64,000 bases of DNA, taken from IMG/VR virus record IMGVR_UViG_3300043399_000524, positions 75,308-139,307 of that record; one strand, 5' to 3'. A program made the position numbers and the translations under genes. This stretch comes from a virus. The notes beneath the pieces were generated by a model that was given only the letters and a program-made list of their open reading frames with translations, was not told the DNA's origin and did not search any database. Of this stretch, positions 4,475 through 61,034 are shown piece after piece. Numbering within the stretch: the first letter of the stretch is position 1; every line of letters begins with the position of its first letter.

Positions 4475-4566
4475 GATAAATATATAGTACGCTCTTAATT
4501 CTGAGAGTTTATGCGGTCCCCGCCGCGTAGTGGAATAGAACCCACATATCAACAAGGAGAAAACAA
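4475..4566 (+). promoter_or_regulatory. Late promoter plus GC-rich three-hairpin 5' leader
   Basis: GATAAATA 4475-4482; hairpins CTCT/AGAG (4492-4507), TATGCGG/CCGCGTA (4510-4529), GTGG/CCAC (4530-4545); AAGGAG RBS. Confidence 0.55.
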
Positions 4567-5583
4567 ATGGGACGTCCTTTAAAAATCGCTAAGGCTCAAG
4601 CAGTCTTAACAATCACAGATACAACAGCAGCAACAGATACAGTTACAGTATCTCAAGATATTTCAGCACCACCAACAGGTGTTGGCATTATTGCAGGTAT
4701 GCCATTTGTAGTTGCATCAAACGTTGGTGGTCTAACAGCTAACACAACATATTGGGTTTTAGAAGTTATCGATGCTAATAATTTCACAGTTTCAGCAACT
4801 GATTTAAGTGCAAATAGAACTCGCACACCAGTATCATTGTCTGACACAACATCTCAAACAGTCTCCGCTTCCGTCGGTGTAGTTGACGCTTATTTCAACA
4901 ATCCAAACGGTGGCGCAGGTTTCCCAGCAACAAACGCTAACACATACAGTGTAGTTGGTGGTAATACAGCTATTATTGGTCCACAAGTACTAGCACGTGT
5001 TGCTATTGCACAAAATGGTGTAGGTACAATTACAGTAGCCGACGATAGTCCAAACATCACTGGTGTAGGTACAGACTTTGCTAACACGTTGACAGATGGA
5101 ACAGTAATTACAACAGCAGATGGCACATTATTAGGTTATGTAACTGATATCGCTAATGCTAACGCTACATTTGCTACGTTTGCAGCTAACAGCTTGTCTA
5201 ATGCTACAAATGTGAGTTTCGTATTTGCTAACAATGAAGCAGGATTTATTGTTCGCCAAAAAGGTAAACAGAAATATCTAGTACAAGGTACAACTTCAGG
5301 TTTAGTTGGCGCTTGCTTTACAGCTAACCTAGCTAATGCTGATTTATATCCAGGTACTATGAACATTGTTGGTACATATGCTAATGCTGCTACAGAAAAC
5401 GTACAGTCATTAAGCGATCACAATGCAGAATTGTTTACAGCAACCTCTGGCATAACAGCACTGCCAAACGAAACTGCAAACATCAATAATAGCTCACCAG
5501 CATACAGCACGTTCAACACTGCTTACGATGCTGATACATACGGTGGTCAACCATACCCAATCGTAACTATTTCTAATGCATAA
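4567..5583 (+). CDS. Putative structural protein (fibre/decoration-like)
   Basis: 338 aa, T/A/N/G-rich; contains GMPFVV...GGLTANTTYWV...NFTVS beta module also seen in ORFs 29513 and 32034; strong RBS. Confidence 0.6.
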   Translation: MGRPLKIAKAQAVLTITDTTAATDTVTVSQDISAPPTGVGIIAGMPFVVASNVGGLTANTTYWVLEVIDANNFTVSATDLSANRTRTPVSLSDTTSQTVSASVGVVDAYFNNPNGGAGFPATNANTYSVVGGNTAIIGPQVLARVAIAQNGVGTITVADDSPNITGVGTDFANTLTDGTVITTADGTLLGYVTDIANANATFATFAANSLSNATNVSFVFANNEAGFIVRQKGKQKYLVQGTTSGLVGACFTANLANADLYPGTMNIVGTYANAATENVQSLSDHNAELFTATSGITALPNETANINNSSPAYSTFNTAYDADTYGGQPYPIVTISNA

Positions 5584-13567: not shown

Positions 13568-14197
13568 ATGATTTTAGGTGTAACTGGACGTATAGGTTCT
13601 GGCAAGGATACAATTGCAGATTATCTATGTACATTTCACGGATTTAAAAGAGTTAGTTTTGCAGCGTCATTGAAAGATGCTGTAGCAGCAGTGTTTAATT
13701 GGGACAGAGAATTGCTTGAAGGGTCTACTAAATCAAGCAGAGAATGGCGAGAACAAATAGACGAGTGGTGGTCTGACAGACTAGGAATGAATATTACTCC
13801 TAGATGGGTTCTTCAATATTGGGGTACAGACGTTCTTAGAAACAATTTTCACAGTGATATATGGGTTGCTAGCGTAGAAAACAAACTACGAACTACTAAA
13901 GACAATATAGTGATAACCGACTGCCGTTTTGCTAATGAAGTCGAAGCGATCAAAAGAGCAGGCGGAATTACTTGCAGAGTTGAGCGCGGTGAACTACCCG
14001 AGTGGTACCAATATGCCATAGATCATAATAAAGGCCCCTCACATGTGGGCTGGTCATTAGGAAAATCTCGCCTTGACAAACTAAAAATACATGCTAGTGA
14101 ATATTCTAGTGTTGGTCTAGAATATGATTATTATATTGATAACAATAATACTATTGACGATTTACACAAACAAATCAACTCAATAATCAACTTCTAA
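13568..14197 (+). CDS. Deoxynucleoside monophosphate kinase (T4 gp1-like)
   Basis: P-loop GVTGRIGSGKDT, SFAASLKD, TPRWVLQYWGT, ITDCRFANE; start at 13568 after AGGAG. Confidence 0.9.
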   Translation: MILGVTGRIGSGKDTIADYLCTFHGFKRVSFAASLKDAVAAVFNWDRELLEGSTKSSREWREQIDEWWSDRLGMNITPRWVLQYWGTDVLRNNFHSDIWVASVENKLRTTKDNIVITDCRFANEVEAIKRAGGITCRVERGELPEWYQYAIDHNKGPSHVGWSLGKSRLDKLKIHASEYSSVGLEYDYYIDNNNTIDDLHKQINSIINF

Positions 14198-14524
14198 GTC
14201 ACCTCTGCGCCAGGTAACTTCTTTTTTCTTTACAACCTCAACGCAGTTTAGACAGATACTACGTAGATTGGTAAACTTACAGTTATCTAAGTTTCCGTCA
14301 ATGTGAAACACTGTAATTTGAGTAGGTAGTACACTTTTAAAGCCACATAAATCACATGTGGCTTTTTTCTTATATCCTGCAGCCTGCCACCTAGAAGTTC
14401 TAGGTTTTTGTTTATTCTTTTTGCGACCACATTCATCACATATACTTCTATAGTGGGTAGTCCCGTTACGCACATAATTTATAGCACAAAGATTTTTGTT
14501 ACAGTGCTTACATATTGGTCTCAT
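14180..14524 (-). CDS. Small Zn-finger HNH endonuclease-like protein
   Basis: CKHC, CDEC, CDLCGF, HIDGNLDNC...NLRSICLNC. Confidence 0.7.
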   Translation of the reverse strand: MRPICKHCNKNLCAINYVRNGTTHYRSICDECGRKKNKQKPRTSRWQAAGYKKKATCDLCGFKSVLPTQITVFHIDGNLDNCKFTNLRSICLNCVEVVKKKEVTWRRGDLEVDY

Positions 14525-14644
14525 GTTATATTTAGCAACTAACCTTCGAAGGTACGGTAAACCCATTATTTTTTCATTTTTAACTAAATAATAGTATGCA
14601 TTTTAGGTGGTAAACCTCATAATTTTACATAAAGGAAAAACAAA

Positions 14645-20563: not shown

Positions 20564-21010
20564 ATGGGTAACTGGGCACAAGGGACATTTGCTCCCAAGA
20601 ATCCTGAAAAGTATGTAGGCAAACATGCTCCAAGATATCGTAGTGGCTGGGAACTAAGAGTAATGATGTTTTTAGATGAAAATAAACACATCAATCATTG
20701 GGCTAGTGAAGCGATATCCATTCCTTATAGAAACCCATTAACCGGGAAACTCTCAAGGTACGTACCTGATTTTTTTGTAGTATACGAAAATAAATTTCAC
20801 CAGATGAAGGCAGAAATTATTGAGGTTAAACCAAAAAGTCAAACTTCATTAAAAGAAGCAAGAACAAGACAAGATCAAGCACATGCTATAGTAAACCAGG
20901 CTAAATTTATGGCTGCAATGGCTTATTGCAAACAACATGGTTATGTTTTTAGAGTTATAAGCGAGGATTCTATTTTTATGAATACCAAAAGTAATCCTAA
21001 AAAGAGATAA
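20564..21010 (+). CDS. Head completion nuclease (T4 gp4-like, TnsA-N fold)
   Basis: PKNPEKYVG...YRSGWE..VM.FLD....WASE...IPY.NP......YVPDF...IEVKP..QT. Confidence 0.85.
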   Translation: MGNWAQGTFAPKNPEKYVGKHAPRYRSGWELRVMMFLDENKHINHWASEAISIPYRNPLTGKLSRYVPDFFVVYENKFHQMKAEIIEVKPKSQTSLKEARTRQDQAHAIVNQAKFMAAMAYCKQHGYVFRVISEDSIFMNTKSNPKKR

Positions 21011-21077
21011 ATAAAAGTGTAGTTCGCGGAATGGGGATTCCCAACTACTCTAACGCTACAAGGAGCAATCAGCAATG
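21006..21077 (+). ncRNA. Conserved structured endonuclease leader, copy 1
   Basis: GATAAATAAAAGT GTAGTT CGC GGAAT GGGG ATTCC C AACTAC TCTAA CGCT ACAAGG AGCA ATCAGCA ATG; related copies at 55203, 58007, 60633. Confidence 0.75.
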
Positions 21078-21818
21078 ATATTTATCAATAACCGCTATAC
21101 AGCAATCTATTATAGAATAATTGAAAATTCAATTCAACAAGAATCTACAAAGGATGGTAAAGAACGCCATCATATAATACCTGAGTCATTTTTTATTAAT
21201 AGGTCACGTCCGGGCCCGAAAGGTTGGCTAACCGGTAATCCCGAAGATTGTTCTAATATAGTATTTTTAACTCCACGTGAACATGCTTTTTGTCATAAAT
21301 TACTAGTACGAATGACAATAGGAAAAATGAAATCTAAAATGATTCTAGCAATTTGGCGAATGTTGAATAGTAAACACACAAAGTTGTTTTCTTCAAAAGA
21401 TTATGAAAAGTATAGATTATTGTTCATTGATGCAATCAAAGTTATGAATACCGGGAAAAGAAAACCTTTAAGCAACGAACATAAATCAAATATATCAAAA
21501 TCATCTAAAGGGACTCCTAAGACTGATCTCGCAAAAAACAACATGAAATTAGCATGGACGTCAAGGGATAGAACAGTAAAACAATCTACTAGGGAACTTA
21601 ACAGAATTGCTAGTAATAGATATTGGTCTTCTGATGAGGCGAGAAAAGTCCAGTCTGAAAAAAGAAAACAATTTATCCACTCAAATCCTTCCATAATAGA
21701 TGACCAAATAAAAAATCTTAACAAATTAAGTAAGTGTGAACATTGTGATAAAACTATGAATCTTGGAAACTATAAAAGATGGCACGGACCCAAATGTAAA
21801 CTAAATAAACTACTATGA
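21075..21818 (+). CDS. Free-standing HNH homing endonuclease
   Basis: ERHHIIP...N..NIVFLTPREHAFCHKLL; NUMOD3-like basic region; C-terminal CEHC...NYKRWHGPKCK. Confidence 0.8.
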   Translation: MIFINNRYTAIYYRIIENSIQQESTKDGKERHHIIPESFFINRSRPGPKGWLTGNPEDCSNIVFLTPREHAFCHKLLVRMTIGKMKSKMILAIWRMLNSKHTKLFSSKDYEKYRLLFIDAIKVMNTGKRKPLSNEHKSNISKSSKGTPKTDLAKNNMKLAWTSRDRTVKQSTRELNRIASNRYWSSDEARKVQSEKRKQFIHSNPSIIDDQIKNLNKLSKCEHCDKTMNLGNYKRWHGPKCKLNKLL

Positions 21819-53795: not shown

Positions 53796-54512
53796 ATGAA
53801 GCCAGTATTAGTCTTAGAACATCAATTGCCCGAACGTTTGGCATACTTAGGAACATGGTTAACTAATCATGGCATACCTTATGTAGTCTTTAACGCTGAT
53901 ATTGACAAATCGTTCCCAGATAGTATTGAACCCTATTCAGCACTAGCAGTAATGGGTGGTGGTATGAGTGCTAACGATCCTCTACACACTAACCGGCAAG
54001 CTGAAATACTTATACTACAAGCAATCCTTAATGACATCCCTGTTATAGGTCATTGCTTGGGCGGTCAACTAATGAGCAAAGCATTAGGTGGCAAAATATC
54101 GAGTTCTCCTAAGCCTGAAATAGGATGGCAACCAATCAAATATGTGAACGAAGCTGCAAAAGAATGGTTTGGTGACGATCCAACGGACACAGTGATACAT
54201 TGGCATTATGAAAGTTTTAGTATTCCTAAAGGTGCTACATTACTAGCAAGTAGTGATGCATGTCCTAATCAAGCATTTAGTATAGGCAAACATCTAGCTA
54301 TGCAATTTCACATAGAAATTGACGAAAACAAGACAAAATCTTGGGTAGAAGATGTTGATAGTAAATGGGATCAGGCTAAGCAGGACTATGATACAGTTCA
54401 AAATAAAGAAGAAATATTGAATGGAATAAACACGCACTTATCAAAGCATCAAGCTACCGCTAATTCTATCTATACCAAATGGCTTGAGACCACAGAATGG
54501 GCCGTCAAATAA
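53796..54512 (+). CDS. Type 1 glutamine amidotransferase (stand-alone)
   Basis: MGGGMS, GHCLGGQL (nucleophile Cys), QFHIE (His-x-Glu). Confidence 0.9.
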   Translation: MKPVLVLEHQLPERLAYLGTWLTNHGIPYVVFNADIDKSFPDSIEPYSALAVMGGGMSANDPLHTNRQAEILILQAILNDIPVIGHCLGGQLMSKALGGKISSSPKPEIGWQPIKYVNEAAKEWFGDDPTDTVIHWHYESFSIPKGATLLASSDACPNQAFSIGKHLAMQFHIEIDENKTKSWVEDVDSKWDQAKQDYDTVQNKEEILNGINTHLSKHQATANSIYTKWLETTEWAVK

Positions 54513-55205
54513 TTAATCTGATAATAGTTTCCAACCCATGTGCGTTTTTGTTCTACCATGAATCATATTACTTAAACCGGCCTCTAAAAGATTATATTTA
54601 ATCAATAATTCTTGTCTTGTACAAACTTCTATTCTTCCATCATTGTGTTGAAAAGTATAAATGGTATGTTTATAGTTTGATGCTAGTTTTCCAACTTGGA
54701 GGGCCCGTTTTCTTTTTCTATCCTGGGTATTTTGTGCCCTAATACATGCATCACGATGTTTTTGTTTAAATTCAAGATCCAGAAATTTTCTTTTTACCCC
54801 ATCACTATTTTTCTTTTTTATATCAGGACGATTTTGAATTTCAGATTGAACCTTTTTTGAAGCAGTACTTTTCTTTTGTTTTACTTCAGGGCGATTTTGA
54901 ATTTCAATAGTTGAGCCGCCATCTCCTGATTCAGGTTTTAAATTAGCCCATATCTTCTTGCCATTTTCATCTCTAGCATTTACAATATCCCAAAGTTCAC
55001 TATAATACAATCCCCAATATTTTAATTCTTCTTTAGTTTGACACTCTTTAAGAATTTCTGTGGTTACATCATAACCGTGTTTTTTGATATGAGGCATCCA
55101 ATATTCTCCTGAACCTTTATATTTGTATGGATCTTTAGAAATAGTCTTACCTAAATATTTCAGTCCAGTAACATTGTGAATCTTTATGTATAGATAAATA
55201 GTCAT
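54513..55205 (-). CDS. GIY-YIG-like (Seg-type) homing endonuclease
   Basis: MTIYLYIKIHNVTGLKYLGKT...Y.GSG; NLKPE.GDGG; C-terminal HTH ending GWKL; true start 55205, not 55304. Confidence 0.8.
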   Translation of the reverse strand: MTIYLYIKIHNVTGLKYLGKTISKDPYKYKGSGEYWMPHIKKHGYDVTTEILKECQTKEELKYWGLYYSELWDIVNARDENGKKIWANLKPESGDGGSTIEIQNRPEVKQKKSTASKKVQSEIQNRPDIKKKNSDGVKRKFLDLEFKQKHRDACIRAQNTQDRKRKRALQVGKLASNYKHTIYTFQHNDGRIEVCTRQELLIKYNLLEAGLSNMIHGRTKTHMGWKLLSD

Positions 55206-55284
55206 GCTGGTGCTTCCTTTCATTGATTCAAGCATTAGAGTAGTCGGGGAGGTCAGAGTCTCGTGGACTACACTTTTATTTATC
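55203..55284 (-). ncRNA. Conserved structured endonuclease leader, copy 2
   Basis: Minus strand: GATAAATAAAAGT GTAGTC CAC GAG ACTCTGAC CTC CCC GACTAC TCTAA TGCTT GAATCAATGAAAGG AAGCA CCAGC ATG. Confidence 0.75.
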
Positions 55285-55318
55285 ATATATTCAGATAAAT
55301 ACATGATTGAGGCATAAA

Positions 55319-55759
55319 ATGTTAGCAGATAATTTAAAAATATTACTTGGTTCTACTTTTGTAGAGTATACAAAAATTCACGGATTTCATTTCAATATAG
55401 AAGGATCTAATTTCCCGCAATATCATGAATTTTTAAACACTTATTACAATGAAGTTTTTGAAACTATCGATACAATTGGTGAATATATTAGGATATTAGG
55501 ATCGTATACTCCCGGTAATTTATCAAGAATGATGGAGTTGAGTGTAGTTCAAGATCAATTAAAAATACCAAGAGCAGAACTCATGTTTGTTGAATTATTG
55601 CAAGACACTGAGATTATGATAGAATTAGTTAAAACTATATTTAATGAAGCAACTCAGGTTGAAGAACAATCTATAGCCAATTTTATGGCAGAACTACAAG
55701 ACTTGTACGGTAAGAAAGCATGGTTTATTCGCAGCATACTAAAAAAAGATCGTGAATAA
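55319..55759 (+). CDS. dps: Dps-family ferritin-like protein
   Basis: TKIHGFHFNIEG.NF..YHEFL..YY......D.IGEYIR.LG; late box at 55294. Confidence 0.85.
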   Translation: MLADNLKILLGSTFVEYTKIHGFHFNIEGSNFPQYHEFLNTYYNEVFETIDTIGEYIRILGSYTPGNLSRMMELSVVQDQLKIPRAELMFVELLQDTEIMIELVKTIFNEATQVEEQSIANFMAELQDLYGKKAWFIRSILKKDRE

Positions 55760-55950
55760 TGAAAGCTAAAGAAATCTACAAAGGATTTAAAACTTACACA
55801 GCTAAGATTTTAGTAAAGAATCCTAACTATTCTGTTCACATGGATGCGATTGTGTATGCCAAAGATGTTACACAGGCTCGCCAACTTATAAAGTTGCAGT
55901 ACAATGTAGATGACGGAAGAATCGGTACAATAAAAGAAATAAAACAATGA
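55759..55950 (+). CDS. Small hypothetical protein
   Basis: 63 aa, MKAKEI start, coupled on both sides. Confidence 0.6.
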   Translation: MKAKEIYKGFKTYTAKILVKNPNYSVHMDAIVYAKDVTQARQLIKLQYNVDDGRIGTIKEIKQ

Positions 55951-57287
55951 GAGCCAGTGAGTTTATCACAGAAGAAGCCAAAGCAATCAAAACTAAAGGC
56001 TTAACTTTAAAGTACGCATTCAATGACAGTGCGTTGCTTATGAAAGCGTTTGAACCTGTCACCAAAAGTCCATTAGCGTTCGTTAAGTTTGTAAAAGAAA
56101 AGAAAGAATTATATCCAGAGAATCTTTGGGTGCATGATGATTATCGTAGCCGCGGCATCGCAAAGACTATGTACGATACATTAAAGTCTGAAGGATATGT
56201 AATTAATAGAAGTCATGACCAGACCAAAGCAGGTAGTGGATTTTGGGATAAACATCGTGGTGAAGATGTGTATGTTTGGGAAGAAATAAATCCTGACATA
56301 AAAAATTATGATTTTAAGCATAAGCAAGAAATAGGTGATTATGTTTATACCGCAGAAGGTAGTCCTGCTGGACTTACTATTCGCTGTCTTGATAAAAAAG
56401 GGAATACAATAGGACGTGCCTCTTTTATGATTTATAAAAATCATTTAGAAAGCATGGATACTAAAGTAGCTTCAGAGTATCAAGGAAAGGGAATAGCCAG
56501 TACAATGTATGCTTATGCAAAAATGTTAGGTAATGATGTAAAGCCTAGCCCATATTTATTACCACCTGGTAAAAAAATGTGGGATGCTTGGAAAAAGTCC
56601 GGCGAGGCTAAACATATTATGCAGGCTAATGAAGAAGTACTTGACGAAATGCCTCTACCGGCAGACTGGGATCCTGCTCAATATCAACAAGGTACTACCT
56701 TCAAACAAAGATTAGCATACGCATTGGAAAGAGCAAAGAAATTAGGCACAGGATCAAGTCGTGTTGCTACAACCATTGAATATCAAGGTCGTCCTACAGT
56801 ATTAAAGATTGCTAAGAATCAAAAAGGTCTAGCACAGAACAGTGTTGAAGCAGACATATTAAGTGATGGATACGCAAGCCAATTAGGTATATTGATACCT
56901 ATCATTGACTATGATGAACAGAATCGTGAACCTACTTGGGTTCATACTGAAATGGCTACAAAGGCATCTGAGAAACAGTTGTGTAATATCATGGGTTGCG
57001 ATAATTTAGATCAATTAGTAAACATGGCTTGGGCTATTACTGGTAAGAAAACATATGTAGGTAACTATCAAAATTATGTAACCTTCTTACGCCAAAGAGG
57101 TAAGACGGACGAACAAATAGAAACAATGTCTGAATATGCTAACACATTAGCAGACTTAGCAACTTCATTTGATGTTGAACTGGGTGATTTTACTAGAGCA
57201 GCAAATTGGGGCATGTATAACGGTAAGCCAGTCATTATTGATGTTGGCTTCAATAGCAACGTTTTAAATCAGTATTACAAAAGATGA
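55947..57287 (+). CDS. GNAT-GNAT-protein-kinase-like multi-module protein with capsid-targeting-like N-terminus
   Basis: MRASEFITE; VHDDYRSRGIA and VASEYQGKGIA acetyl-CoA motifs; LGTGSSR, VLKIA, GDFTRAANWG, IIDVG kinase-like motifs. Confidence 0.75.
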   Translation: MRASEFITEEAKAIKTKGLTLKYAFNDSALLMKAFEPVTKSPLAFVKFVKEKKELYPENLWVHDDYRSRGIAKTMYDTLKSEGYVINRSHDQTKAGSGFWDKHRGEDVYVWEEINPDIKNYDFKHKQEIGDYVYTAEGSPAGLTIRCLDKKGNTIGRASFMIYKNHLESMDTKVASEYQGKGIASTMYAYAKMLGNDVKPSPYLLPPGKKMWDAWKKSGEAKHIMQANEEVLDEMPLPADWDPAQYQQGTTFKQRLAYALERAKKLGTGSSRVATTIEYQGRPTVLKIAKNQKGLAQNSVEADILSDGYASQLGILIPIIDYDEQNREPTWVHTEMATKASEKQLCNIMGCDNLDQLVNMAWAITGKKTYVGNYQNYVTFLRQRGKTDEQIETMSEYANTLADLATSFDVELGDFTRAANWGMYNGKPVIIDVGFNSNVLNQYYKR

Positions 57288-57343
57288 GAGCCACAGAATT
57301 TTTATCAGAACTATTTCAACCAGGAAAGAACACACTACCTTAG
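57284..57343 (+). other. 19-aa mini-ORF (MRATEFLSELFQPGKNTLP), possibly a truncated gene
   Basis: ATGA overlap with the upstream stop; N-terminus parallels MRASEFITE; ends at TAG inside a structured element. Confidence 0.55.
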
Positions 57344-57410
57344 GACCTTTGCGTTATAAAGTGTGAGCCGGGAACCCGGGCTTGAACATCAAATTCGCTA
57401 CTTGCTGTTC
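57331..57410 (+). ncRNA. Candidate structured RNA element
   Basis: CACA/TGTG plus CTTT/AAAG stems enclosing CTACCTTAGGAC; AGCC..GGCT GC-rich hairpin; GAACA/TGTTC hairpin with ATTCGCTAC loop. Confidence 0.4.
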
Positions 57411-58009
57411 TTAACAGGGTTCATTTTACATTTATCACCGTGCCATTGTAATATATTTGCGATGCCACCTTCAACCTTACAATGGATACAACACATTCTC
57501 CTTTTTGGTACACCTACTTGCCATAAAGAGTGATTTTTCTTATCCTCTTCTGACCATACCCATCCGCCTGTTGACCTACCCTTTAATACTTTTGGTTTTC
57601 TCACCTTACCTAATTTTAAATTAGATTCTTGTACTCCTTCACTTATTTTCTTTTTGTGTTCTTCGGTATGCGGTGTTATTTTGATACCCTTAACTCCGCC
57701 TCCTCTTAACCCATCTTCGGGTTTTAAATTAGCCCATTCGTTAGATTCTACAATGTTATTTTCAATGGAAAAATTTAAAGCAAATTCTTGTAGTTCTTTT
57801 TTGTTCGTGAATAGTTTGTACCATATCGTGTCAACTAATTTTCCGTGTTTTTCCAAATGCCTAGTCCAATAGGTGCCTGACCCTAAATATTTTATTGGAT
57901 TTTTACCGGTGGTTTTTCCAAAATATTTTAATCCAGTTATTTTATGTTGTTTTATGTATAAAAATGTTGGTTTGAAAACTCCATTCGGAGAATCGGAATA
58001 AATACTCAT
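57398..58009 (-). CDS. GIY-YIG-like homing endonuclease
   Basis: FKPTFLYIKQHKITGLKYFGKT...YLGSG; NLKPEDG; NUMOD3 HTEEHKKKIS; C-terminal CIHC...WHGDKCK. Confidence 0.8.
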   Translation of the reverse strand: MSIYSDSPNGVFKPTFLYIKQHKITGLKYFGKTTGKNPIKYLGSGTYWTRHLEKHGKLVDTIWYKLFTNKKELQEFALNFSIENNIVESNEWANLKPEDGLRGGGVKGIKITPHTEEHKKKISEGVQESNLKLGKVRKPKVLKGRSTGGWVWSEEDKKNHSLWQVGVPKRRMCCIHCKVEGGIANILQWHGDKCKMNPVKNSK

Positions 58010-58074
58010 GCTGGTGCTCCTTTATAGCATTAGAGTAGTTGGGCCGGCCAGCCGCGAACTACACTTTTATTTAG
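58007..58074 (-). ncRNA. Conserved structured endonuclease leader, copy 3
   Basis: Minus strand: CTAAATAAAAGT GTAGTT CGC GGCT GGCC GGCC C AACTAC TCTAA TGCT ATAAAGG AGCA CCAGC ATG. Confidence 0.75.
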
Positions 58075-58103
58075 TCCTAATAGGATATAATTTTGGAATA
58101 ACA

Positions 58104-58541
58104 ATGAAAAAAATAATAACAACAATTTTAATGCTAGTATCACTAACTGCTTTTGCACAAAAACAACCACAAGGTGTAACTTATGATGCACAAATCGTTC
58201 GAGTAAATGACGGGGACACTATAGTCATTTCAGCACCCTTTCTACCAGCACCATTAAAGCCAGAATTAGCTGTAAGGGTTTTTGGTGTTGATACTCCAGA
58301 AAAAGGATTCAGAGCTAAATGTCCTCAAGAAGATGCCAAAGGACAAGCAGCTACAAAATTCACTAAAGATGCAGTAGCAGCAGCACAAAAACGCCAAGTT
58401 GTATTATATGATTGGGATAAGTTCGGTGGTCGTGTGTTAGGAGATATTATTCTTAACGGACAAAGTTTACGTACCATGTTGATTCAAAACGGCTATGCCC
58501 GAGCATATTTCGGGGAAGCTAAACAGAGTTGGTGTAATTGA
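58104..58541 (+). CDS. Thermonuclease (SNase fold) with signal peptide
   Basis: MKKIITTILMLVSLTAFA signal; RVNDGDT, VRVFGVDTPE, DKFGGRVLG, GYARAY. Confidence 0.9.
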   Translation: MKKIITTILMLVSLTAFAQKQPQGVTYDAQIVRVNDGDTIVISAPFLPAPLKPELAVRVFGVDTPEKGFRAKCPQEDAKGQAATKFTKDAVAAAQKRQVVLYDWDKFGGRVLGDIILNGQSLRTMLIQNGYARAYFGEAKQSWCN

Positions 58542-58553
58542 TAAATATATATT

Positions 58554-59261
58554 ATGCGTTATACAGAATTTGTTACCGAACGAAAAAAGTCTAAAAAGAA
58601 AAGAAGTAAAAAATTAAGAAATTACTTCTTTCCTGGTTATGGATATTATGGTGTATTTGGTTCAGGTGAAGATTCTGGTGGCGATGGTGGCGGTGAAAGT
58701 GTTAATGAATCACCCGAAATAGAGTTAAGGAAGCGTTTGCCCTCCTTAAAGAAACATGATCGTACAACCATTGATGATCTGGTTCGTAAAGTTGCTTATA
58801 AACACAAAATATCTCACAAAGCCCTTGATGATTTATTTCAACGAACTTATAAAAAAACACCCTCTGATTGGATCAAAAATAAACTCGACGAAACTGACAA
58901 TGTAGAATGTGATTTAGAAAAAGAAATCGACAAATTTGCACAATGGACAGCTAAACGACTTAATCTTAAAAAAATTCCAAAGATAATACTTAGCCAAGAC
59001 ACTGAGGAAGCACAAACGAATCACCATACTGGAAGCCATCACATGGGTTCACACACAGTTTGGGTATACGCTAAGAACCGCAATTTGGTAGATATCCTTA
59101 GAACCGTTTTCCATGAATTAGTTCACGTAAGACAAGACGAATTGGGTATGATTAAGCCAGGTGACAGTTATCCCGGTAGCCCAATTGAAGCTATGGCAGA
59201 CATGTTAGCTGGAAAATTCATCAAAATTTACGGTGAAAAGAACCATCACATCTTTCAATAA
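58554..59261 (+). CDS. Zn-metallopeptidase-like multi-module protein with capsid-targeting-like N-terminus
   Basis: MRYTEFVTE; basic RKKSKKKRSKK; RTVFHELVHVRQ (HExxH) and downstream Glu in IEAMAD. Confidence 0.7.
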   Translation: MRYTEFVTERKKSKKKRSKKLRNYFFPGYGYYGVFGSGEDSGGDGGGESVNESPEIELRKRLPSLKKHDRTTIDDLVRKVAYKHKISHKALDDLFQRTYKKTPSDWIKNKLDETDNVECDLEKEIDKFAQWTAKRLNLKKIPKIILSQDTEEAQTNHHTGSHHMGSHTVWVYAKNRNLVDILRTVFHELVHVRQDELGMIKPGDSYPGSPIEAMADMLAGKFIKIYGEKNHHIFQ

Positions 59262-59284
59262 TTGTTAATCTGTGCTATAATAGC

Positions 59285-59881
59285 ATGATGATTAAACTAT
59301 TGGTCCCGTTACCCAAACAAGTCACTGTTGCATGTAGCGGTGGAGTGGATAGTATGGCTGTGGTTGACTTTCTAAAACGAAAGCACGATGTAACAATTGC
59401 TTACTTTCATCACGGTACAGAACACGGCGAAGAAGCATTCAAGTTTGTTGCAAATTATTGCACAGACCACAACTTGCCCATAATGTTCGGGACTATTCCT
59501 ATTGAAGAACGAACCAAAGATGAATCACAAGAAGAATACTGGCGCAGAAAACGCTATGATTTTCTGAGCAAGTGTGGGCCAGTTATCACTTGTCATCATT
59601 TGGATGATTGTGTAGAAACATATATTTGGTCAGCGTTACATGGCACACCCAAAGTGATTCCCATGATTCGTAACAATGTATTGCGCCCATTCTTAACTAC
59701 ACGCAAAGAAGAATTCAAGTCTTGGTGCTTGCGTCACAATGTACCTTGGATTGAGGATCAATCAAATCAGGATACCAAATACATGCGTAACTATGTCCGT
59801 AATATGTTAATGCCACATGCATTACACGTTAACCCAGGCTTGCATACGCTCGTCCGTAAAATAGTTGAAAAAACTAGATAA
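59285..59881 (+). CDS. tilS: tRNA(Ile)-lysidine synthase-like PP-loop protein (minimal)
   Basis: ACSGGVDSM, RRKRYDFL, HHLDDCVET, RPFL, WIEDQSN...RNYVR; extended -10 TGCTATAAT upstream. Confidence 0.85.
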   Translation: MMIKLLVPLPKQVTVACSGGVDSMAVVDFLKRKHDVTIAYFHHGTEHGEEAFKFVANYCTDHNLPIMFGTIPIEERTKDESQEEYWRRKRYDFLSKCGPVITCHHLDDCVETYIWSALHGTPKVIPMIRNNVLRPFLTTRKEEFKSWCLRHNVPWIEDQSNQDTKYMRNYVRNMLMPHALHVNPGLHTLVRKIVEKTR

Positions 59882-60635
59882 TTAGTTTCCAACCACGATG
59901 CGAGATCGCCTTCCTTTTAATCAACCTACATACTAGTACTTTACTTAGATTATATTTTTTAATAAAATCATATCTTGTTAGTGTCTCACGTATTCCGGAG
60001 TCGTGAACCCAATTATATAATGTGTGGTCAAAACTTGAATTGTTACTGCCAGTCGTTACACTACTCATTAATTGTCTGAATTCCGTTGTTGATGTTGCCA
60101 ATCTTAGTCCATCTAATCTTTTCTTCCTGACAACCGGATTCTTCCACGAAGAAGTTGTCATTTTCTTGTTTTTTTCTTTATAGTCCGAGTCGTTTTTTAA
60201 TATAGTTTGTTGCGAACTCATTTTTTCTTTGGCCTCAGGAGTACCCAATGCTTTTTTGATTGCGTTACCTCTTTTGATTTTTACTTGAGGATCACTCCAA
60301 CTATCTCTTAATTTTTGTTTGGATATTTCAGAGAATTCTGTCTGGCCGCCAGCAGTTTCTGGTATTATATTGGCCCATATTTTATTCCCATAATCATCCA
60401 CTGAAGTTGTTATTCTCCATAGATTGCTGTAATATCTGCCGATATCGCTTAATTCTTGTTTATTTGATGTAACGAATATGATTTCTGTCCGAATGGAAGT
60501 TCCGTGTATTTTTAGGTGCTTGATCCAATCGAGACCAGATCCTAAATATTTATGTGGATTTTTCTTTTTAGTTTGACACAAATATTTCAACCCAGTAATA
60601 TTATGGGTCTTAATCATCAAATAATAAATAGTCAT
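59874..60635 (-). CDS. GIY-YIG-like homing endonuclease (paralog of 54513)
   Basis: MTIYYLMIKTHNITGLKYLCQT...YLGSG; NIIPETAGG; C-terminal HTH ending GWKL. Confidence 0.8.
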   Translation of the reverse strand: MTIYYLMIKTHNITGLKYLCQTKKKNPHKYLGSGLDWIKHLKIHGTSIRTEIIFVTSNKQELSDIGRYYSNLWRITTSVDDYGNKIWANIIPETAGGQTEFSEISKQKLRDSWSDPQVKIKRGNAIKKALGTPEAKEKMSSQQTILKNDSDYKEKNKKMTTSSWKNPVVRKKRLDGLRLATSTTEFRQLMSSVTTGSNNSSFDHTLYNWVHDSGIRETLTRYDFIKKYNLSKVLVCRLIKRKAISHRGWKLII

Positions 60636-60704
60636 GCTGATTGCTCCCTTAAAGCGTTAGAGTAGTTGGGAATTCCCGTTCCGCGAACTACACTATTATT
60701 TATA
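60633..60704 (-). ncRNA. Conserved structured endonuclease leader, copy 4
   Basis: Minus strand: TATAAATAATAGT GTAGTT CGC GGAA CGGGAA TTCC C AACTAC TCTAA CGCT TTAAGGG AGCA ATCAGC ATG. Confidence 0.75.
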
Positions 60705-60767
60705 CCAAAGATATAGTTTTTTAGATTTAACTTCTATATAATAAGTACTTTATAGGAGAAACACATT

Positions 60768-61034
60768 ATGTCAGATTATAACCGCACATTTAATAACGAA
60801 GCCAAAATCAAATTAACACAACTTGTTAATGAGGGCATCGCAACACTACACGAAATTGATACACTATCCGGTGGACTCAATGACACAATCAAAGCAGTTG
60901 CCGAAGAATTAGAGATTAAGGCTTCTACATTAAAGAAGGCAATCAAAATCGCACACAAAGCAAGTTTGGGTCAGACTAACAAAGATCATGATGAATTAAA
61001 CACAATTCTTGAAACTGTGGGCAAGACTCTGTGA
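60768..61034 (+). CDS. DsbA/GapR-like dsDNA-binding protein
   Basis: 88-aa helical protein: KLTQLVNE...L..I......DTIKAVAEEL.I....LKKAIKIAHK. Confidence 0.6.
   Translation: MSDYNRTFNNEAKIKLTQLVNEGIATLHEIDTLSGGLNDTIKAVAEELEIKASTLKKAIKIAHKASLGQTNKDHDELNTILETVGKTL

Follow-up and report, generated by a model that had tools for sequence, protein, structure and literature searches.

Among the selfish elements of large phages, homing endonucleases predominate. To our knowledge, the means by which they are kept harmless are known for only a handful of T-even genes, and each of these has a separate hairpin. In IS10/Tn10, a backward promoter within the 5' end of the transposase gene gives RNA-OUT, a stem-loop RNA of ~70 nt complementary to the 5' end and ribosome-binding site (RBS) of the transposase mRNA. 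In the T-even and Aeh1 homing endonuclease genes I-TevI, I-TevII, I-TevIII, segB and Aeh1 mobE, a hairpin sequesters the RBS in read-through transcripts only, the late start removing its 5' arm (PMC2988022). CfrI of cyanophage S-PM2 is a ~225-nt antisense RNA from a single locus linking psbA and a nuclease gene, as Millard et al. (2010) are summarized in PMC2984593. The PeSL elements of T4-like phages join a terminator to an early promoter and are found on either side of ORFans within hyperplastic regions (PMC2839356, PMC4122927). Here we describe a further element, a portable cassette of ~80 bp of uncultured giant T4-like phages, which heads homing endonuclease genes in the IMG/VR virus record IMGVR_UViG_3300043399_000524. 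The 64,000-nt stretch analyzed (positions 75,308 to 139,307 of that record; hereafter the window) belongs to a myovirus, with T4-like tail, baseplate, PhoH and NUDIX genes. The stems of the cassette covary, and the strand on which its fold is selected is antisense to the nuclease gene.

A first-pass annotation of the window had proposed that a single leader architecture precedes four genes, with starts at 21075 (+), 55205 (-), 58009 (-) and 60635 (-), and direct reading confirms all four copies at these positions. The order of parts is late box, 5 nt, GTAGTY, inner hairpin, RACTAC, TCTAA, YGCT, purine-rich Shine-Dalgarno sequence (SD), AGCA, 1-3 nt, CAGC and ATG, the sense late box reading ATAAATA in the window cassettes and once CTAAATA. 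The 12-mer AGTGTAGTYCRC is present 5 times in the window (0.69 expected), a count reached by 0 of 100 shuffles. A fifth cassette lies outside the window on the same 139,307-bp viral contig (G000:C1:48706-48787, + strand), ahead of a GIY-YIG-like open reading frame (ORF). The leaders had been described as far more alike than the genes behind them; this holds for the five contig cassettes, whose pairwise identity is 73-91%, as against 49-62% (nucleotide) and 16-35% (protein) for the ORFs that follow.

The cassette is widespread in metagenomic phage DNA. A pattern scan of IMG/VR returned at least 119 loci. A covariance model built from 113 copies was run on five large records, among them two complete genomes (349 and 361 kb), and recovered 5, 14, 14, 1 and 8 copies. 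Per complete phage genome of 330-360 kb, the number of cassettes is 5-14. The gap in bit score is clean, with cassettes at 58 or more and the rest at 21 or less, and at least 143 distinct cassettes are found in IMG/VR contigs. Every downstream ORF family tested is a homing endonuclease (HNH, GIY-YIG/SegE, NUMOD3): for 107 full-length downstream ORFs, Pfam gave NUMOD3 (31), HNH_3 (13), HNH (13), GIY-YIG (7) and SegE_GIY-YIG (5), and the PHROG homing endonuclease families phrog_314 and phrog_655 accounted for 64 and 40. The leader defines a family of mobile nuclease cassettes, as had been proposed. Short ORFs behind intact cassettes are in 8 of 10 cases frameshifted or stop-interrupted endonuclease genes (~7% of distinct ORFs; cassettes at L105:8059, L132:1575, L049:3539, L051:6092, L074:4585, L061:4782, L037:7875 and L131:1576), representing either decaying nucleases or assembly errors.

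Searches of described sequences did not recover the cassette. In Rfam 15, on both strands, nothing overlapped a cassette in the whole window at gathering scores or in 54400-60800 even at E≤10, the latter bearing out the novelty that the first-pass annotation had made conditional on an Rfam search. Cultured phages gave no match to a 7.5-kb region (megablast) or to one cassette (blastn), and a literature search found no paper describing it. A pattern scan of GTDB genome contigs yielded three true cassettes among 120 matches listed (L233, L239, L268), the others being chance matches. These three contigs are filed under bacterial genomes or metagenome-assembled genomes, one of them a 1954-bp contig in an ‘uncultured proteobacterium’ bin; they are probably mis-binned phage DNA without a reliable host clue.

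All three stems of the leader, for which pairing had been proposed from the four window copies, pair and covary on large alignments. The outer stem (P1) occurs as GTAGTT/AACTAC, GTAGTC/GACTAC, GTGAGT/ACTCAC, GTAACT/AGTTAC and GAGGAT/ATCCCC, the last three in copies recovered by the model and not by the pattern. One position of the inner stem (P2) shows four pair types (AU 55, GC 44, UA 33, CG 9). The third stem (P3) pairs YGCT with the first AGCA and has the variants GATT/AATC, GTC/GAC, GATC/GATC, AGTT/AACT and AATT/AATT. The clearest compensatory evidence for P3 is a subfamily in which linker and P3 are replaced jointly, with TCTATGATT...AATCACAGC in place of TCTAAYGCT...AGCAxCAGC (L069:6805-6889, L061:11376-11464, L137:1501-1587 and L038:5264-5343). 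In an earlier model, R1, GCT was joined to the AGC within CAGC, the second of two; variant copies show that its partner is the first (in GGAGC). An extension of P1 by AG/CT past a T.T mismatch was also dropped, as its -2/+2 pair favours the antisense strand and its -3/+3 pair the sense strand. Positions upstream of P1 have no covarying partner.

For strand assignment, an antisense model was built and 116 copies were realigned to give alignment A6, with 20 pairs and 2320 cells. On the antisense strand 97.0% of cells pair, with two-sided change at 17 of the 20 pairs (matched by 0 of 500 shuffles); the same pairs read on the gene strand are formed in 86.5% of cells. Restricted to 18 core pairs, the figures are 2086 of 2088 cells on the antisense strand vs. 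1861 of 2088 on the sense strand. What is A.C on the gene strand reads as G.U on the opposite one; with one invariant G.U set aside, wobble cells at core pairs number 109 on the antisense strand only and 0 on the sense strand only. Even alignments fitted to a sense-strand model contain 31 A.C and 0 G.U cells at core pairs. The carriers of G.U are spread over many different backgrounds, and the junction pair follows the classical path on the antisense strand (G-C in 98 copies, G.U in 14, A-U in 4). The pair that closes P3 on the gene strand is C.A in 74 and U-A in 56 of 143 copies. The fold therefore fits the strand opposite the gene.

Stem lengths and stabilities differ between strands in the same direction. 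The first antisense stem has 8 bp (CUGR.UGCU/AGCRUUAG) vs. 3-4 bp on the gene strand, and single folds of the window copies give a first stem of 7-8 bp on the antisense strand only. Mean hairpin stability is -9.36 kcal/mol for antisense and -8.64 kcal/mol for sense (Wilcoxon p = 4e-5). The first-pass annotation had placed the selected fold in the 5' untranslated region (UTR) of the nuclease mRNA, and this part of its proposal is not supported; of its dedicated cis-regulatory RNA, the conserved, covarying and undescribed module stands, with the selected strand opposite to that of the gene. The cassette is a clean natural example of how G.U vs. A.C asymmetry can reveal the functional strand of a covarying element.

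Each cassette is bounded by two late boxes. On the sense side, no fewer than 90% of copies keep TAAATA, and 112 of 138 have a 5-nt spacer behind it. Given that the late box of T4 occupies -13 to -6 (PMC1524935), this spacing puts the predicted sense start on the first base of P1. P1/P2 and P3 are thus wholly downstream of that start, in agreement with the first-pass annotation, and the SD purines lie in the P3 loop. The second box, which that annotation had missed, is TATTTA, the reverse complement of TAAATA, and lies on the opposite strand in nuclease codons 2-4. In 92 of 114 copies its distance from CAGC is 5 nt, whatever the position of the ATG, and because the start codon shifts by 0-2 nt, TATTTA is read in all three frames (MxIY, MIFI, MYL). 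Of 80 MxIY genes, all 80 have T as the last base of codon 2 (39.9 expected) and all 80 encode the isoleucine by ATT (background share 0.40). The second box is constrained at the nucleotide level and frozen at synonymous sites. Its geometry of box, 5 nt and G matches that of the sense box, so that, given the position of the T4 late box, both predicted starts fall on those G residues.

The use of ATAAATA elsewhere in this genome is that of a promoter. The heptamer is under-represented (59 vs. ~104 expected), and 42 of the 59 occurrences are found no more than 120 nt ahead of a start on the same strand, mostly at a distance of 18-28 nt and before tail and baseplate genes; by position, then, it appears to behave as a promoter. 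The predicted nuclease leader is ~56 nt long vs. 12-22 nt for other late genes of this genome. Two other accounts of the repeated box were rejected. If ATAAATA and UAUUUAU paired at long range to close the cassette in read-through transcripts, the helix would contribute negligible energy (7 A-U pairs across a ~65-nt multiloop), and promoter geometry, equal on both sides, explains the repetition better. A miniature inverted-repeat transposable element (MITE)-like element with 7-bp inverted ends was dismissed because one end would lie inside codons 2-4 of diverse ORFs.

Since the conserved fold fits the strand opposite the gene, a small antisense RNA is most likely, rather than a sensing leader. 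We hold with moderate confidence that the best explanation is a pair of facing late promoters with an antisense RNA that restrains the nuclease. In this scheme, two T4-type late promoters ~65 bp apart would face each other across the cassette. The sense box would start the nuclease mRNA at the first hairpin base, and from the opposite box an antisense RNA would begin, its first base lying in the complement of CAGC just upstream of the start codon. The predicted antisense RNA is ~65-70 nt long with two hairpins: the first would display the anti-SD CCUU in a 7-nt loop on its 8-bp stem, and the second, a two-tier hairpin of 12 bp, would lead into a U-rich stretch complementary to the sense promoter. 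Being fully complementary to the 5' UTR, SD and start codon of the mRNA, such an RNA would restrain translation or trigger mRNA decay, and the head-on promoters may add transcriptional interference. We infer from these features that the two boxes are active promoters and that the antisense RNA stops at the hairpin and represses the nuclease.

Several points weigh against this interpretation. The U tail is imperfect: a run of at least three U within 8 nt of the hairpin is seen in 71 of 116 copies (mean U fraction of the tail, 0.57), and a simple consensus terminator scan did not flag the cassette hairpins. The two predicted promoters would be active at one and the same stage of infection, which makes the timing of regulation hard to account for. 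A cis antisense RNA has no need of the strong primary-sequence conservation of P1, the TCTAA linker and the CGCG junction, which is thus unexplained. Single-sequence folding z-scores are weak (-1.9 to +0.6). Finally, A6 was fitted to the antisense structure, and its counts are of cells, not of independent evolutionary events.

The fold might instead act in the nuclease mRNA. There, a 5'-terminal hairpin beginning at +1 would stabilize or gate the message, with the small SD hairpin next to it, forming a cis-regulatory leader that is possibly protein-bound. P1 does open exactly at the predicted start in 112 of 138 copies, the leader is longer than those of other late genes (~56 vs. 12-22 nt), and unpaired, conserved CGCG and UCUAA would suit a protein site. 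Mirror-image helices can also form in the sense RNA of most copies, as the 86.5% of paired cells indicates; however, all 109 one-step intermediates are A.C on that strand and none is G.U, and sense P3 is left with just 3-4 bp and a C.A mismatch in 74 of 143 copies. A sense leader would also leave unexplained why TATTTA is frozen in three frames, and we regard it as unlikely.

The opposite-strand promoter and RNA might alternatively serve the host genes, either as a replacement late promoter and leader for a displaced neighbour or as a PeSL-like terminator or insulator sealing the insert. Relative to the nearest upstream ORF, the cassette is divergent in 78 of 131 cases and co-oriented in 41; the occurrence of both orientations fits the expectation for a self-contained unit. 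In the divergent cases the fold does lie on the host-gene strand, but with the 41 co-oriented neighbours the opposite-strand RNA would enter the 3' end of the upstream gene. T4 host promoters embedded in seg and mob genes favour gene retention (PMC2988022), and the 8 of 10 truncated ORFs behind intact cassettes, if decaying nuclease genes, would suit a cassette kept for its neighbours. On the other hand, neighbours often have their own late box between cassette and start (as at 55295-55301 in the window; an opposite-strand TATTTAT lies within 50 nt upstream of the cassette in 25 of 143 copies), and the hairpin has a U-rich tail. A role for the neighbours therefore seems improbable to us.

Repression of the nuclease by antisense RNA could also extend beyond the single locus. 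The linker, the P3 stem and the segment from SD to start are near-invariant among the 5-14 cassettes of a genome, so the antisense RNA of any copy could pair with all other cassette mRNAs. The RNAs might then act in trans as well as in cis, giving a copy-number-dependent (‘multicopy’) inhibition that would cap the homing endonuclease load; the inner hairpin would be a scaffold for folding and termination only, and the cassette a recombination handle that captures nuclease ORFs. This fuller scheme is speculative and we consider it doubtful.

A role in the DNA itself is quite unlikely in our judgement. The cassette would be a site of recombination or gene conversion that swaps nuclease ORFs behind one promoter, or a single-stranded DNA hairpin with a part in replication or recombination, and the RNA fold would be incidental. 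That one cassette heads unrelated catalytic families (HNH, GIY-YIG, SegE-like), and that the start codon floats through three frames within a fixed nucleotide frame, would be expected of such a site; PeSL cassettes have been proposed to shuffle genes likewise (PMC4122927), and DNA hairpins also tolerate G.T. Recombination needs identity, yet within one genome nearly every cassette has a different inner hairpin that still pairs, and sometimes a different outer stem, with identical inner hairpins recurring between genomes (G000, G001, G002, G003 and G005). This distribution may reflect old orthologous insertions or selection for distinct copies. The strand asymmetry would moreover require a single-stranded form of one particular strand, and two exact late boxes of equal geometry would go unexplained. 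A recombination handle probably explains how unrelated ORFs come to share the cassette, not the compensatory changes. As for a small ribozyme (suggested by the first-pass annotation) or a ligand-sensing riboswitch, the conserved, unpaired linker and junction nucleotides are the features in its favour, and with no Rfam match on either strand, two simple hairpins lacking conserved internal loops or a pseudoknot signal, and an inner loop whose sequence varies freely, nothing points to either and we judge both very improbable.

Within the window, cassette 1 (21007-21085, + strand) heads an HNH-type homing endonuclease gene (21075-21818, +; 247 aa, starting MIFI; phrog_655, E 2e-37) that is co-oriented with its neighbours. 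Its sense late box is at 21007-21013 and the predicted sense start is G 21019; the P1/J/P2 hairpin spans 21019-21048, P3 spans 21054-21067 with the SD purines in its loop, and the ATG is at 21075. On the opposite strand, the late box TATTTAT lies at 21079-21085 and the predicted antisense start is the complement of C 21073. Cassette 2 (55194-55283, - strand) is of the GTAGTC/GACTAC subtype with a long P3 loop (sense box 55277-55283, hairpin 55240-55271, P3 55211-55234, ATG 55203-55205, opposite-strand box 55194-55200). It heads the gene at 54513-55205 (-; 230 aa, starting MTIY; phrog_314), a homing endonuclease gene antisense to its + strand neighbours. Between this inverted cassette and the start of the neighbour there is a late box at 55295-55301 (+), 18 nt before ATG 55319 of a DNA-binding protein gene.

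Cassette 3 (57998-58074, - strand) has the variant sense box CTAAATA (58068-58074), with the hairpin at 58035-58062, P3 at 58015-58029, the ATG at 58007-58009 and the opposite-strand box at 57998-58004; it heads a homing endonuclease gene (57398-58009, -; 203 aa, starting MSIY; phrog_314), likewise antisense to its neighbours. The start at 58008 assigned to the overlapping ORF 58008-58541 (+) is artefactual, arising from the palindromic CATG where the nuclease gene begins; the true start is likely 58104, from which the product (MKKII...) is signal-peptide-like and matches the endonuclease PHROG phrog_452. Cassette 4 (60624-60703, - strand; sense box 60697-60703, hairpin 60662-60691, P3 60642-60656, ATG 60633-60635, opposite-strand box 60624-60630) heads an endonuclease-like gene at 59874-60635 (-; 253 aa, starting MTIY), also antisense to its neighbours. 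PHROGs identify three of the four window ORFs as homing endonucleases; the product of the gene starting at 60635 has no PHROG family match of its own, with an N-terminus that resembles that of the gene starting at 55205. None of the four has a Pfam match at E≤0.01.

Two further features of the window stand apart from the four cassettes. A small antisense ORF at 14180-14566 (-; 128 aa) has a weak HNH endonuclease match (E 9.5e-4) and no cassette, and may be a nuclease gene outside the cassette system. The Rfam freshwater-2 RNA (RF02980, 62.2 bits) is present at 4492-4569 (+), and from the late box ATAAATA at 4476-4482 transcription would be expected to begin at ~4488, so that the motif would be essentially the entire 5' UTR of the late ORF 4567-5583 (338 aa, no PHROG match).

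If the facing-promoter interpretation is true, unrelated nuclease families throughout a whole clade of uncultured 250-360 kb phages have one portable control module in common, and this would be the first case of phage selfish nucleases governed by a dedicated antisense RNA unit. The covariance model is ready for annotating cassette nuclease genes and their promoters in metagenomes. An antisense RNA would extend a known theme, control at the RNA level that keeps T-even homing endonucleases low (PMC2988022).

Among described elements, PeSL resemble the cassette in being short, conserved, repeated modules of promoter and stem-loop beside variable genes, and they probably mediate shuffling by recombination. 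The cassette differs in its two late boxes, its tie to homing endonucleases and its reach into coding sequence; the PeSL combination of early promoter and stem-loop terminator is not seen, and no sigma-70-like site coincides with the cassettes. CfrI, as summarized in PMC2984593, is like the predicted cassette RNA in coming from a T4-like phage, in being antisense and in overlapping a homing endonuclease gene; it is longer and is not a repeated portable unit, and no two-promoter geometry is reported for it. The T-even and Aeh1 genes likewise have a T4-type late box immediately upstream, together with an RNA structure at the translation start that keeps a selfish nuclease low (PMC2988022). The late promoter directly upstream of the endonuclease ORF is thus shared with I-TevI; an RBS-sequestering hairpin whose 5' arm lies upstream of the late start is absent from the cassettes, in which every stem follows the predicted late start and the SD lies outside the main hairpin. 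The selected fold on the opposite strand, the second, facing late box and the use of one unit by more than 100 unrelated genes further separate the cassette from that group.

Closest in layout is RNA-OUT of IS10/Tn10, in which, as predicted for the cassette from sequence, a promoter inside the 5' end of a mobile nuclease gene fires backwards to give a small antisense RNA. A putative outward promoter within the 5' end of the gene is recognizable in the cassettes from their nucleotides, and the predicted antisense transcript has a selected, stable fold (97.0% paired, 17 of 20 pairs covarying). The two share no sequence relation, and the cassette differs in its pair of phage late promoters and its two hairpins, with an anti-SD in the first loop. 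The cassette is best filed as an element undescribed in Rfam and in the literature searched, which extends the known antisense and late-promoter control of selfish nucleases.

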